The notes: generated by a model not told the origin, from the letters alone. Shown: positions 12,106-44,571, counted from the first letter of the stretch. The stretch is 64,000 nucleotides of DNA from an uncultured Acidobacteriota bacterium (GCA_963804995.1 CAWDSK010000001.1:288001-352000); one strand, 5' to 3'. Translations and numbers: made by a program.

Positions 12106-12322
12106 CCTATCTACACCCCCATTTCAATTTAAAGTATGAAGACCAGCACCTGAGAAGCAGGTGGCTGAATTGTTACCTATCAACTTGTCTAAGTCAAGGG
12201 CATTTTGGGAGAAATTGTCCCTGGGCGGGAGAAGCCGTGAAAAAATAGCATTCTCACCGCAGAGACGCTGAGGCGCAGAGAAAAGGACCTTTATTTTCAT
12301 TTCTCTGCGCCTCAGCGTCTGC

Positions 12323-12522
12323 GCTATGAAAATGCATGTGCCAAAGGCACCTTGGAGTGCGGCGGCTCAACGCCGCCTTGAATTTACGCCGAGGACGATG
12401 ACGAAGGCGGCGTCGAGCCGCCGCACTCCAAGGTGCTTCGCACATTTTCATGTACAGTGGCGAGCCGAAGTCTCATGGGAATCTGCGGTGAAAATTGCAT
12501 TTTTTCACACCTTCGGACGCCC
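12323..12522 (+). repeat. 200-bp nested palindromic repeat, inverted partner of 14122-14321
   Basis: Reverse complement of 14122-14321 with only one difference found by eye. Confidence 0.9.
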
Positions 12523-12632
12523 GTGCCACTTCAAAATGTGTCACCACCCCCCCGAGCGGGTTCTTGACCCTGTGGAACGCTTGTGTTACGGTCAGCATCC
12601 GAATTCATAACGCGCCCTCACCCGGCGGTCAA

Positions 12633-14038: not shown

Positions 14039-14534
14039 TAGAGCGGTTTTGATTTAAGTGCTTACATGTCCTGTGGGGCTAGCCGCGAGGACGTTGTTGC
14101 CGCGCGAAGATTTCGTGCCAGGGGCGTCCGAAGGTGTGAAAAAATGCAATTTTCACCGCAGATTCCCATGAGACTTCGGCTCGCCACTGTACATGAAAAT
14201 GTGCGAAGCACCTTGGAGTGCGGCGGCTCGACGCCGCCTTCGTCATCGTCCTCGGCGTAAATTCAAGGCGGCGTTGAGCCGCCGCACTCCAAGGTGCCTT
14301 TGGCACATTCATTTTCATAGCAGAGACGCTGAGACGCAGAGAAATGCCTCTTTGTTTTCAGACCTCTGCACCTTCGCGCCTCTGCGGTGAAAGTTATGCG
14401 GGGATTTTTTCACACCTTCTCCCCCCCCGTGCCCGAGCACGGCCGGGACCCCGATGCATCGGGGCTGGCTGGCCGTGGCACGTCTCTGGTTGCGGCTTCG
14501 CCACGTTGTATACACTTAAATCAAAGACGCTCTA
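14039..14534. mobile_element. MITE-like element with 28-bp terminal inverted repeats beginning TA (IS630-like ends), holding nested repeats
   Basis: TAGAGCGGTTTTGATTTAAGTGCTTACA (14039-14066) versus inverse of 14507-14534, TAGAGCGTCTTTGATTTAAGTGTATACA; 24/28 match. Confidence 0.7.
14122..14321 (-). repeat. 200-bp nested palindromic repeat, inverted partner of 12323-12522
   Basis: Reverse complement of 12323-12522. Confidence 0.9.
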
Positions 14535-16998: not shown

Positions 16999-18259
16999 TC
17001 ATCGACCGGCGGAACTGAACTCCTCGAACCGCCGGACCAGCCGCTGCCAGTCGGTTTTGGAGAACTGACCACGCGCAGGACGCATTCCCATCTTGACGGC
17101 GTGAATCCGCTTGAGTGTTTGGTCCCAGCGCTCGCGCGGGAGCTTGCCGGATTCGAGCGCCGCTTCGATTCCCCGTTCCATCTCTTGCCACGACTCCTCT
17201 TTTTCAACCAGAAGCAGGTCGCATCCGGCGTTGACGGCCTGAGCCGCGGCACGGCCCAAATCCAGAACCCCTCTCACGGTCGGAGATTCTAGCTCCGGCG
17301 CGATGACCACTCCCCGGTAGCGGAGCTTGGTGCGGAGCAATCCTTCCACAACTTGCTTCGAGAGCGCCGCCGCGAGCGGGTAATCAAAGTCGTAGGCCTT
17401 GTACGCGGCGGTGCTCATCATGACCATGGGAAGCCGCTCCAACAGTTCGCGATAGGGAACCAGGTCGTAGGCCCAAAGCCCGGCCATCGACCGCCCGCTG
17501 ACCGGCAACTCGCTGCGGGGGGCGGGGTGAGAGGAGCTAGTGTGGTGTCCCGTGTAAGAGTTGACAATGGGTAGAACCCCCTCACCCGTCTGGCCTCGGC
17601 TGATGAGAACGCCTCGGCCAGCCACCCTCTCCCCCAAAGGGGCGAGGGCAAGAACATTAACTCTCCCCTCGCCCCTTTGGGGGAGAGGGGTTGGGGGGTG
17701 AGGGGGTCGGCCAGCCTTGTCAAATACTAACCGGGACACCACGCTGGCCAGCCCCGGGAAATGCTTCGCGCACGCCAGAATCTTGTGCCGTTCAAGACCT
17801 TCGACAAAAAACCATCCGCACTGAGCCACTTGCCTGGGATCCTCGCTGAAGGTGTGTGCGCTATGGGTTTCTTCCAATGTCAGGTCGAGCCCGGGCGCGA
17901 AGATGGTATTAAATCCGAGCAGCTTAAGTGCCTCACCGATCAGTTCGCCTGCTTGACGAGCAGCACGCTGACCCCTCGCTCCGATTTCGCGCGGCGAGGG
18001 CAGCGGAGGCAGCAAAGCGGAGAGCGGATTTGCACCGCCGCCCCCGGGATCAATGGCCAGGAACGGTGCGACCGGTAGGCTGGCAGAGATTCGATTGAGC
18101 AAATCGCGGAGTGCATCCGGCGAGTCAGGGAGTGGCCCCGCAATCAAAATGCCACCCGGAGCGAGAGTCTGAAGATGCCGCTCGAGAGGAACTCCAGCGC
18201 GGTCCGGCAAGCCGCAACATCAGCAGGTCGCCCGTAGGGTTCTGGGGTGGCGAATTCAT
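16999..18259 (-). CDS. Glycoside hydrolase family 3 N-terminal domain protein (NagZ-like, degenerate; frameshift near 18185)
   Basis: [52 protein letters not shown] 18259 overlaps the mutS stop; lies next to anmK. Confidence 0.75.
17575..17706. repeat. CCCTCTCCC-family palindromic repeat inside the GH3 coding frame
   Basis: CCCCCTCACCCG...CCCTCTCCCCCAAAGGGGCGAGGG...CCCTCGCCCCTTTGGGGGAGAGGG...GGGTGAGGGGG; homologous to intergenic 44231-44400. Confidence 0.88.
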
Positions 18260-39105: not shown

Positions 39106-39313
39106 CTGGAATTTCTCGGGGCGGAGGGAATGGGCGGGCTATTGCCTTTCCCTCCCCGCGGTGCTTGCGTGGGGCAACACCTAAGTTGGGGAATTGCCTT
39201 GCGGCTCTGTCTCCCTGGCCGTAGGGGTACGGCTTGCCGTGCCCTCTGCATTTTTTATCGCGTGACCGAAGCAAGAGGGTACGGCAAGCCGTACCCTGGA
39301 GTTTTTACATTTA

Positions 39314-40693
39314 TTATGCATCAGCGGCGTGGGTGAGGGCGCGGTCGGTGAGTTGGAAGCCCAGAGATTGGGGACATTCCGGGTGGTCGACCATTTCTTG
39401 GCGCAGCAGGGTGACGAGGTCGAGGCAGGAAGGGCGGTGGGCCTTGCGTCGCCACCGGGGCAGAGCCTGATAGGCCGTGCCACGCTCGGTGCCGAAGGCT
39501 TGGAGAGAAGCCAGGAGCAGCGCGCTGTAGGCGGCCACGACCAGGGCAGGTTGCTTGGGCACGGCGTTAACGTTCCATAACTGGGCTTGTCCGACACCCA
39601 GCGTCTCCTTCTCGTCGCGGTGGTTGACTTCGATCTGCCAGCGGTCGAAGTAGATTTGCAGCAACTGAGGGGCAGAGTGCCGCAGGTCGGTGGTCAGCAG
39701 GTAGGCCGGTTGACGGTAGTAGAGTCTGGAGCTCTTCCGTTTGCGATAGGGGGTAGGAGCCACGACGAAGAGCCGCAGGGGGATCTGGCCGGCGCCCCGA
39801 CGCCAGTAGACTTGCGACACCTCTTTATAACGGAGGCGGCGGCGCTTGCCTCCGTAGAAGAGCTTGGTTTGCTGCCAGAGGTGGGACTCGTCCTGCCGGA
39901 CCTGTTCGGGGGTAAAGGTGGAGAGGGCGTAAAAGCGGCGAGAAGGCTGGGGAGCGCGAAAGCCGAGGCGCGCATCCTTGCGGGCGCGGGCGATCAACTC
40001 GGTGCGATCGCGGGGGGCGCGCAGACAGGTGCGGTTGCAGAAGCTGCCATCCAGAGCCAGCACCAGCAGCTTGGCCCCACCCCCGGCCGCATCCAGCGCC
40101 TGGCGCAAGGGGGCCACGCTCTGCACAAAACGCTGCGAGAGGTTGTGGAGCTTGCGCATCCTTTTATATTCCTGCCAGGCTTCCTCTTTCGCCTTGCGGG
40201 AGGGCTTTTTCAGCGGCGCCGCCTCTTCAAAGCGCACGGGCAGAGCGCGGCAGCTGGCGGGGGCGTGCCGATGCAGGGGCAGCAGCAGGGAAGCTTGCAG
40301 AAAGCGCACGCCGCGCAGGAGGTTGACATGAAAGGGGGGCGAGAGGGGATCGCGGTGATAACGCGCCTGGGGAATGGCGCGGCCGGTCTTGCGCAGGCGG
40401 GTGTCGTCGACGGCCACGCCCACCAGGCGGCCGGGACAATAGGGCAAGGCGCGGCGCCAGACGCCGGCAAACAACGTCTGCGGTTCCCAGTGACAACGCG
40501 AGTGGAGAAAGTATTCGCTCGACCAACTGCGCTGCTGGCGGCCCTGGGTCCAGAGGATACGCGAAAGACAGCGTCGACCCACGCAGACCAAGGCGCCCAG
40601 GGCCTGGCGCACGGCGCGCTGCAGGGTGCGCTGCTGGGGAAAAGTGGGGGCCCAGTCCGCCACGATCTCCGACCAGGCGGCGAACAGAGTCAT
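39314..40693 (-). CDS. DDE transposase (IS4 superfamily)
   Basis: VAVDDT, LALDGSF, YFDRWQIEVNHRDEK (Y-x2-R-x3-E-x6-K). Confidence 0.92.
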   Translation of the reverse strand: MTLFAAWSEIVADWAPTFPQQRTLQRAVRQALGALVCVGRRCLSRILWTQGRQQRSWSSEYFLHSRCHWEPQTLFAGVWRRALPYCPGRLVGVAVDDTRLRKTGRAIPQARYHRDPLSPPFHVNLLRGVRFLQASLLLPLHRHAPASCRALPVRFEEAAPLKKPSRKAKEEAWQEYKRMRKLHNLSQRFVQSVAPLRQALDAAGGGAKLLVLALDGSFCNRTCLRAPRDRTELIARARKDARLGFRAPQPSRRFYALSTFTPEQVRQDESHLWQQTKLFYGGKRRRLRYKEVSQVYWRRGAGQIPLRLFVVAPTPYRKRKSSRLYYRQPAYLLTTDLRHSAPQLLQIYFDRWQIEVNHRDEKETLGVGQAQLWNVNAVPKQPALVVAAYSALLLASLQAFGTERGTAYQALPRWRRKAHRPSCLDLVTLLRQEMVDHPECPQSLGFQLTDRALTHAADA

Positions 40694-41025
40694 CGGGCCT
40701 CCGGACGTAAGCCGAAAGTGTTCTTCCCGGTACGCAGGAAGCGATCGCCGCGGGCGACTTTTTTGGTCAGCGAAGAGACCAGGCTCTCGCGATCGACGGT
40801 GACGTGGAAGGCGGCGCGGAGGCGCGCCAGGAGTTCGGAAATGTGCAAGGGGGTACGGGCCTTCTTGAGTATGTCGTACGCCATGTCCACTTGGGACAGA
40901 CCTGTGCGGCGCGGCCTCGGGGCGGGGGCTGGGGAACCGCCGCGGAGACGGCGAACCGCCCGCAACTGGGCATCCAGTGAGGCCTCGAATATCGAAAGAA
41001 TGGAATCCTTGAGATCGTCAGGCAA
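40690..41025 (-). CDS. IS-encoded small winged-helix (HARE-HTH-like) protein
   Basis: SQVDMAYDILKKARTPLHISELL...FLRTGKNTFGL; GGAGG RBS; ATGA overlap with the transposase start. Confidence 0.75.
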   Translation of the reverse strand: MPDDLKDSILSIFEASLDAQLRAVRRLRGGSPAPAPRPRRTGLSQVDMAYDILKKARTPLHISELLARLRAAFHVTVDRESLVSSLTKKVARGDRFLRTGKNTFGLRPEAR

Positions 41026-41255
41026 GTTAACCTCCGGAGCCAGGACTCAGGAGGAAGGTAACGGAAATCAGGGAGGTCTGTCAATAGAAATCTTACTTTG
41101 CCAGACCTAAATGTAGAAACTCCAGGGTACGGCAAGCCGTACCCCTACATCCGAGTATTGAGTGTGAGGGGTCGCATCTGAACATTTGCGAGACCTGCTG
41201 GCCGTGGGACCACGCCAGCAGAATCCTGGCTAAAATCTCGTGAAGAAGGTGCACG

Positions 41256-44119: not shown

Positions 44120-44230
44120 AGAAAGCAGGTAGTGCGGTGCGCCGGAGCCGCATATGAAAACGGAAAGGCAAATGGCAAAAGGTAAAAGTTTAAAGCCGTT
44201 GATGGCGGTGGCAACTCGCCGGACGCTAAA

Positions 44231-44400
44231 ACCCCCTCACCCCCCGGCCCCTCTCCCCCAAAGGGGCGAGGGGGGAGTTAATTTGACTTACTCAGATGAG
44301 AGAGGGAGAGTGATTTGAATTCATAACCCTCGCCCCTTTGGGGGAGAGGGTGGACCGCTACCGGCGTTTTCATCAGCCGGGGCGGGACGGGTGAGGGGGT
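44231..44400. repeat. CCCTCTCCC-family palindromic doublet
   Basis: ACCCCCTCACCC...CCCTCTCCCCCAAAGGGGCGAGGG...CCCTCGCCCCTTTGGGGGAGAGGG...GGGTGAGGGGGT. Confidence 0.85.
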
Positions 44401-44571
44401 CGACTAGGAACAAATTGAGAAGTGGGAAGCGCGCGGTGGCCTCCGACCGCAACCAAACTACGCCGTTACGCAGCCCCCGACCTGTCAGTACCCCTCATAT
44501 GAATACCATCCAAAAATGCGGCTCTGCGCTACCGTCTTCGCGAAGATCTTACCCTTCCATCGAGGTGCATC

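Follow-up and report, generated by a model that had tools for sequence, protein, structure and literature searches.

What allows an insertion sequence (IS) to copy an entire hairpin on inserting into it, and does the small protein encoded beside its transposase take part in finding that hairpin? These questions are raised by an element in a 64,000-nucleotide stretch of DNA from an uncultured Acidobacteriota bacterium (GCA_963804995.1, CAWDSK010000001.1:288001-352000; the window), in which a two-gene IS lies within a doublet resembling the repetitive extragenic palindromes (REPs) of bacteria. Judged by its own flanks and those of its relatives (L numbers denote loci), the element inserts at short GC-rich palindromes of varied sequence. 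It is best explained as an active member of a large clade within the IS4/IS701 superfamily, found mostly in Acidobacteriota.

The IS and its copies in the source genome

The IS spans 1,830 bp (39296-41125) and is bordered on both sides by an exact copy of the 18-bp palindrome GGTACGGCAAGCCGTACC. A first-pass annotation of the window had proposed a two-gene IS inside a duplicated hairpin, and this was borne out. So was its claim that removing the IS and one repeat copy restores an intact doublet: performed in silico, the removal gave a GTAG doublet matching an intact sibling on contig C3. The terminal inverted repeats (IRs) that it gave as 17 bp are present and are better described as 18 bp, 17 of them matching. 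The further sibling that it pointed to, at 2432-2505, is uninterrupted, as claimed, but degenerate, with no GTAG start and a damaged second hairpin. The boundary between IR and duplication, which it had left ambiguous between 2 and 18 bp, could be settled from the other copies. The source genome carries seven in all, the six others being 99.7 to 100% identical to the window copy, and all seven end alike (one with C>T at the first base). Because these six share the ends and have duplications of their own (21, 19, 23 with one mismatch, 22, 21, and 21 bp), the window duplication is 18 bp. Each of the seven is flanked by a direct repeat consisting of a whole hairpin of 18 to 23 bp, and the hairpin differs at each site.

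The window copy occupies the second hairpin of its GTAG REP-like doublet. L015, an independent relative, adjoins this hairpin as well, facing the other way. Formation of the palindrome by the insertion itself was considered and rejected, since near-copies of every target occur elsewhere and many genomes of the genus contain dispersed copies of the doublet.

Hairpins of unrelated sequence serve as targets

Ends were scored as adjoining a hairpin if a perfect stem of at least 7 bp started 0 to 2 nt from the IS end, a condition that a random junction in the source genome would meet about 0.2% of the time. Such stems were found at 100 of 110 scorable flanks of metagenome loci, compared with 33 of 11,000 mononucleotide shuffles. 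With metagenome and genome loci pooled (160 relative loci), 223 of 252 scorable ends adjoined a stem of at least 7 bp, and stem-loops of variable sequence are thus targeted, as by IS1272 and IS1630. Hairpin duplication is almost certainly a property of the clade as a whole.

The first-pass annotation had named the element a candidate REP-targeting transposon, and specificity for REPs was not supported. In the set of 58 non-redundant sites with a matching duplication (two duplicates dropped), GTAG tags were present at 12; in the source genome they were present at 7 of 15 targets, compared with 25% of its hairpins (p=0.056). Because the tags are not clearly preferred, the element appears to target GC-rich hairpins and not REPs as such. 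Many of the targets belong to one or another family of dispersed REP-like repeats, several such families being represented, with 3 to 86 near-copies each, and repeats of this kind are the commonest supply of GC-rich hairpins. In the source genome, 15 of 17 IS copies lay outside long open reading frames (ORFs) on both sides. Targeting of transcriptional terminators was rejected, as a T-rich tail followed only 3 of the 58 targets.

Duplication length and position follow the hairpin

Duplications at the 58 sites ranged from 17 to 32 bp, with 39 of them at 19 to 22 bp. At 55 sites the duplication was centered on a stem of at least 7 bp, and at 50 its edge lay no more than 1 nt from the stem foot; when lengths were permuted among sites (20,000 permutations), the latter count averaged 28.7 and never exceeded 39. 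The earlier proposal of a cut at the hairpin base, with the hairpin duplicated whole, is in line with these counts. Duplication length correlated with the hairpin (Spearman 0.58 for all 58 sites; Pearson 0.85 without L044, L141, and L086), and six of the eight duplications of at least 25 bp were on stems of 10 to 14 bp. Beyond this set, further duplications measured 20 bp (L178, L199, and L207), 21 bp (L187), about 21 bp (L186), and 33 bp (L189).

The arms also carry a sequence preference. G,G at +6/+7 from the cut was found in 122 of 217 unique flanks, compared with 433 of 3,477 hairpins of the source genome, which alone supplied the background. The distance from GG to the cut was constant at offsets 0 and 1 in all length classes. 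In the source genome, windows with GG outnumbered hairpins about 60-fold (308,225 compared with 5,030), and GG alone would therefore be insufficient for target choice. Read from the flanks, the duplication is centered on the dyad and scales with stem length, and G,G is favored at +6/+7 of each cut.

Two further arrangements were seen at the ends. In L051, L108, L050, and C5:393730 of the source genome, a second IS-end motif lies just past the duplicated hairpin, which suggests repeat insertion into an already duplicated hairpin. In L100 and L132, the flanks match each other in inverted, not direct, orientation over at least 30 bp, which may reflect rearrangement or an assembly artifact.

The transposase and its family placement

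The transposase is 459 aa long and encoded on the minus strand, and its start is overlapped by the stop of a 111-aa ORF at an ATGA junction. Residues D96, D215, E355, and K362 were invariant in all 77 aligned homologues, R351 was conserved in 76, and Y348 in 67; on this conservation the YREK motif (Y-2-R-3-E-6-K) is complete. The predicted structure (predicted local distance difference test score, 96) returned Tn5 for all five best Foldseek hits (E value, 4e-11 to 3e-9; template modeling score, ∼0.53). Profile matches were marginal or below cut-off. PF13546 (DDE_5) scored 27.3 bits with a cut-off of 27, and the top NCBIfam model, transpos_IS701_3 (NF049999), scored 132.5 with a cut-off of 170 (E value, 2e-38). 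Other IS701 models were also below cut-off (33.3/150 and 21.9/250), all IS4 models were well under theirs (36.6/152, 34.9/250, 23.5/115, and 12/160), and no IS1182 or IS30 model was among the eight NCBIfam hits at E≤0.1.

Of 8,000 candidates scored, 6,836 matched at E≤1e-20, and those at E≤1e-30 formed 447 clusters at 50% identity, so the clade is large. Matches in named genomes were mostly from Acidobacteriota among the best 80 of 288, and likewise among the best 80 of 358 in a second list. Plasmid matches, including the nearest annotated plasmid transposases, were only about 25% identical, and viral contigs gave no locus by single-protein search and one true relative by alignment search. Among the outlying members, L004 and L010 are 35% identical single-copy homologues from two congeneric genomes. 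They resemble each other at 73% over 1.9 kb, have no clear ends or duplication, and are possibly old or domesticated.

In the accessible part of PMC2266710, IS4 is set apart from IS701 by the YREK motif. The element resembles IS701 in its best profile match and in its marginal PF13546 domain. It differs in having the YREK tyrosine, hairpin duplications of 17 to 33 bp (17 to 32 bp at the 58 sites), a length of 1,830 bp, an accessory gene, and ends reading CTGGAG, where that source gives IS701 a mostly absent tyrosine, 4-bp duplications, lengths of 1,400 to 1,550 bp, and ends of the form ---YACT-Y--YR; ORF-less relatives measure 1,473 and 1,518 bp. The same source lists ISSus1 of Solibacter, a candidate member of the present clade. 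With the IS4 subgroups IS10, IS50, and ISPepr1 it shares the DDE triad with full YREK, 5′-CT ends, and a fold like that of Tn5/IS50, together with one inferred 7-bp duplication, seen in a sister IS only. It departs from IS4 in its variable duplications, two to four times longer than the 7 to 13 bp of that family, and in its model scores of 12 to 37 bits against cut-offs of 115 to 250. The element has an IS4-type active site, yet lacks some features that define IS701 and some that define IS4.

Several unrelated genes alternate in the accessory slot

For the 111-aa protein, HARE-HTH (PF05066) was matched at E=0.0011 and 19.8 bits, under the Pfam gathering cut-off of 25.9, and its nearest Atlas clusters have PF05066 in 38 to 61% of members. 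In the predicted fold, a linker joins a helix of 27 residues to a winged helix. The nearest structures were the N-domain of the RNA polymerase delta subunit and Rok, none at E≤0.001, with Z-alpha among the weak rows. The homodimer prediction score of 0.05 is not evidence either way. Of the first-pass description of a HARE-HTH-like ORF overlapping the transposase start, the ATGA overlap and the winged helix-turn-helix (wHTH) fold stand, and the HARE-HTH assignment stays at its sub-cut-off match.

Between the left IR and the transposase, 199 loci carried a wHTH gene (145), a DUF6788 gene (16), an AbrB-like gene (13), or none of these (15), or were too short (10). L052 is of the wHTH type. The DUF6788 label was over the Pfam cut-off in all three cases tested, and the AbrB-like label is weak (MazE E value, ∼0.07). 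Among the 25 other loci, five carried a 304-aa DruA-like gene, with PF14236 over cut-off in both tested. These genes (L068:292-1206, L073:114-1028, L075, L077, and L084), of the DruA family (PF14236, Druantia), stand directly upstream of the transposase in one sub-lineage whose left ends were not located. In L093 and L094 the leaders, of 77 and 115 nt, leave no room for a gene. The ATGA junction was found at 110 of 134 wHTH loci. A quick tree, built from the 59 of 172 transposases retained after an 80% redundancy filter, required 11 changes of accessory label, and DUF6788 by itself required six among seven rows.

Hairpin targeting was kept across these slot types. Ends abutted hairpins in 192 of 221 cases for wHTH, 19 of 19 for DUF6788, 3 of 3 for DruA-like, and 4 of 4 for ORF-less elements. 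Duplications were 20 to 22 bp in the DUF6788-type L051, L061, L178, L199, and L207 and 18 bp in the ORF-less L094. A sister IS with an AbrB-like upstream gene and a 40% identical transposase showed whole-hairpin duplication in 8 of its 10 copies. Accessory genes of two kinds also head other elements. DUF6788 heads two ISKra4 elements in the source genome, one with ordinary 9-bp duplications in 9 of 9 copies, and in L258 (114-1519) a wHTH homologue (46%) precedes a transposase of the IS1634 family, and TTGACA there is surrounded by a related palindrome. Because the slot types swap with targeting kept, and because DUF6788 and wHTH genes also head ISKra4 and IS1634 elements, the accessory gene would be neither required for hairpin targeting nor able to confer it, and comparison of the loci makes this independence very likely. 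The first-pass annotation had cast the wHTH protein as a partner in target selection or in regulation. The former role does not fit with the other slot types, and the latter gains from the leader sequences described below. As for whether most relatives lack the gene, the slot counts show that most carry it, while across the clade it appears dispensable.

The sister IS (C1:277250-279012 and nine more copies) is 1,763 bp long and has a run of eight A residues at its overlap, a possible frameshift site, and its own palindromic putative operator. The source genome holds 25 DUF6788 matches (e.g., L266 and L272), with ISKra4 duplications of about 9 bp and one tandem pair on C2. A fusion of wHTH and transposase by programmed frameshifting was rejected: the transposase frame is open upstream in the window copy, but AAAAAA was found in only 4 of 108 scored loci. 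The 23 longer transposase forms were mostly single-member clusters, the four inspected resembled frameshift errors, and a fusion was rejected here too.

A putative operator accompanies the winged-helix gene

The sequence TTGACA was kept in 69 of 79 non-redundant wHTH leaders, where it lies inside one arm of an inverted repeat and is followed, 17 nt beyond, by a −10-like consensus. The inverted repeat was found in 94 of 102 non-redundant wHTH leaders and in none of 24 others (0 of 14 DUF6788 and 0 of 10 AbrB leaders), with shuffles giving 3 to 7%. Its arms were 20 to 22 nt apart in 84 of 99, and both co-vary in the distant members L095, L184, and L189. AbrB leaders have a different palindrome, perfect in 6 of the 10 printed. 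Because an inverted repeat over the TTGACA box accompanies the wHTH gene, its product is a probable autorepressor; from this co-occurrence, binding to the putative operator and repression are likely. Leader and gene together would have the anatomy of an autorepressed promoter cassette that is translationally coupled to the transposase. Comparable roles are reported in the accessible parts of two studies, for the Arc repressor in IS605, which limits transposition (10.64898/2026.09.24.754181), and for Orf121 of IS91, which overlaps the tnpA start, inhibits transposition, and leaves target choice unchanged (PMC13181058).

Proposed mechanism and alternatives

In DDE strand transfer, each 3′ end is linked to the 5′ boundary of the stretch to be duplicated, on opposite strands. 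The best explanation as a whole, which we regard as fairly probable, combines insertion at the hairpin foot with an exchangeable repressor cassette. The target palindrome would extrude as a cruciform, and a transposase dimer would link the two 3′ ends of the IS to the arms, one end to each, at a phosphodiester that lies either at the 5′ foot of the arm or 1 nt outside it. The two joins would lie diagonally across the four-way junction, so that the cuts stay close in space at any arm length; the transposase would also read GG on the arms. The arms would then melt, and gap repair would copy the whole hairpin to both sides. The winged-helix protein may act on its own promoter, repressing the ATGA-coupled message of wHTH and transposase by binding the inverted repeat that covers the −35 box. 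Promoter, operator, and repressor would travel as one cassette, swapped elsewhere for DUF6788, AbrB-like, or DruA-like cassettes. A variable, dyad-centered duplication ending at the stem foot would be expected because an extruded junction keeps both attacked bonds close whatever the arm length, and the cruciform geometry taken by itself is moderately probable. Hairpin-duplicating geometry of this kind has been drawn as hypothetical pathway b in the accessible part of PMC5678879.

Target selection by the winged-helix protein, whether of REPs or of cruciforms, is one alternative; it would suit the gene's presence within the IRs of most loci, its translational coupling, and a predicted fold resembling winged helices that bind DNA structure or the minor groove (Rok, with Z-alpha among weak rows). 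It is nonetheless very unlikely, as DUF6788, DruA-like, and ORF-less elements adjoin hairpins as often as wHTH elements do, the AbrB-type sister IS behaves likewise, a wHTH homologue heads an IS1634 element, and the promoter carries a wHTH-specific putative operator. Alternatively, a host factor at REP-like hairpins (a REP-associated Y1 transposase, gyrase, or a hairpin or junction nuclease) could recruit the transpososome or make the cut. The targets in the source genome are dispersed repeats outside long ORFs, there are 14 Y1_Tnp matches in that genome, and a sibling doublet has a group II intron as its neighbor, all of which would suit such a factor. The target sequences are mutually unrelated, however, the GTAG tags are not clearly enriched, and the GG bias, fixed to the cut across many hosts, points to the transposase; we consider a host factor unlikely.

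Two further possibilities concern the form of the target DNA. A hairpin on one strand only, at the lagging strand or in a transcription bubble, with the second IS end joined later at the mirror position, would leave the same sequence signature, and short stems fold more readily in single-stranded DNA. Yet the symmetry of the cuts about the dyad at 55 of 58 sites is given directly by concerted two-end DDE chemistry on a symmetric junction, and the single-strand route is doubtful, to about the degree of a host factor. Least probable of all is an enzyme that cuts linear DNA with a constant stagger of some 20 bp and favors symmetric GG...CC sites, hairpins being copied by a coincidence of length; the cluster of duplications at 19 to 22 bp and the strong GG bias speak for it, but the lengths follow the hairpin over their whole range, up to the 33 bp of L189, and GG...CC windows are about 60 times as numerous as hairpins.

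Several observations weigh against insertion at the foot of a cruciform and against the cassette coupled with it. Stems of 7 to 9 bp with loops of 2 to 4 nt are short for stable cruciforms. Hairpins were missing at 29 of the 252 scorable ends. Where both flanks were available, duplications matched at just 33 of 63 loci from genomes and 12 of 37 from metagenomes; the remaining loci mostly show a different hairpin on each side, perhaps through collapsed assembly or inter-copy recombination. Within the 58 sites, the cut in L086 is 8 nt inside a 17-bp stem and that in L138 is 4 nt outside, the duplications of L044 and L141 are not centered on the stem, and 11 duplications contain one or two mismatches. 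The counts are not independent, since the loci share ancestry and, in part, genomes. Two copies of the sister IS with swapped flanks imply one 7-bp non-palindromic duplication, and linear DNA may therefore also serve as a target. Ends were not located for the outgroup loci L002, L004, L007, L010, and L012, 29 to 40% identical, so the trait could be followed outward only as far as the loci with located ends. No orthologous empty site was found in 40 relatives and four further runs, where joints across the IS stem from other doublets. Finally, a promoter consensus scan of the leader of the window copy found none. The swapped copies are C1:277250 and C2:761832, whose flanks (a 21-bp hairpin and a 7-bp non-palindromic repeat) are exchanged reciprocally, through either inter-copy recombination or an assembly switch.

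Relation to known systems

Other IS families include elements that duplicate hairpins. One is the Mycoplasma fermentans element IS1630 (IS30 family; Calcutt et al. 1999), reported in the accessible part of PMC3317919 to duplicate variable inverted repeats of 16 to 26 bp. Its transposase is of another family, T tails were seen at only 3 of 58 targets here, and the available part of its description mentions no accessory cassette. IS1272/TnSha1 (IS1182 family) is similar in its structure-dependent choice of stem-loops of unrelated sequence and in the cruciform model proposed for it; as far as PMC5678879 and PMC4923244 go in their accessible parts, its insertion leaves no duplication, the hairpin being deleted or replaced, whereas the present element would realize pathway b. 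ISPsy8, ISPa11, ISPpu9/10, ISRm22, IS1397, and IS621 also insert into repeated extragenic palindromes, with one host REP consensus each and duplications of 0 to 6 bp according to the accessible part of PMC1525189. The present element differs in using many unrelated hairpins (seven for seven copies in the source genome) and copying them whole. Arc of IS605 and Orf121 of IS91 are likewise small upstream genes that limit transposition. They have other folds and belong to other IS families, whereas here four unrelated genes alternate in one slot.

A literature search, with ISfinder, TnPedia, and subscription reviews (e.g., Siguier 2015) outside its scope, gave no description of whole-hairpin duplication by an IS4/IS701-like element or of such a cassette. 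The chances appear evenly balanced that the clade is an undescribed IS group, defined by a Tn5-like cruciform-specific integrase, a duplication length set by the target, GG read-out on the arms, and a plug-in promoter-operator-repressor cassette of at least four unrelated folds shared with ISKra4 and IS1634. New here are the GG read-out, the four-way swappable cassette, and the putative operator. With a Tn5-fold enzyme whose stagger varies between 17 and 33 bp according to the hairpin entered, the element could allow structure-directed transposition to be tested in a compact system with a single enzyme. As the hairpin is copied to both sides, a REP or stem-loop is left intact on each flank, which may make this a low-harm niche; hairpins are multiplied as well. 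Should cruciforms be the substrate, the element would be a natural in vivo probe of short cruciform extrusion, its insertion map recording where they form. The upstream cassette, in turn, gives a testable role, autorepression, to small IS-linked genes encoding winged-helix, AbrB-like, and perhaps DUF6788 proteins.

Features of the locus and other repeats

Table 1. Features in and around the IS, with window coordinates
Feature	Position	Strand	Basis
First hairpin of the host GTAG REP-like doublet, not duplicated	39221-39247	+	Inverted to 39274-39296; doublet dispersed in same-genus genomes
Target duplication, copy 1 (18-bp hairpin, second of doublet)	39278-39295	.	Exact direct repeat with 41126-41143; edge set by six other copies
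Right terminal inverted repeat (IRR), 18 bp	39296-39313	-	17/18 with IRL; end motif conserved in relatives
DDE transposase, 459 aa; D96, D215, E355; Y348-R351-E355-K362	39314-40693	-	PF13546; transpos_IS701_3; Tn5-like fold; residue counts in 77 rows
111-aa helix plus winged-helix protein, probable autorepressor, ATGA-coupled to transposase	40690-41025	-	HARE-HTH sub-cut-off; PF05066 Atlas clusters; fold
Putative promoter: TTGACA (41084-41079) and, 17 nt downstream, a weak −10 box	41056-41084	-	Leader conservation
Imperfect inverted repeat over −35 box, putative operator of winged-helix protein	41076-41106	.	Co-occurrence in leaders
Left terminal inverted repeat (IRL), 18 bp	41108-41125	-	Copy and IR comparison
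Target duplication, copy 2	41126-41143	.	Exact repeat of 39278-39295
Rest of REP doublet end, CCTAC (GTAGG on minus strand)	41144-41148	+	Sequence

Elsewhere in the window, a group II intron lies on the minus strand at 485-2419, with Rfam matches RF02003 (2254-2393) and RF00029 (498-595) and a 436-aa ORF (617-1927), and its 5′ end is about 13 nt from the degenerate sibling doublet. Other dispersed repeats of 200 to 370 bp were found at 17536-17742, 12298-12529, 14115-14484, and 44127-44418, the one at 17.5 kb having about 48 megablast hits in the genome.

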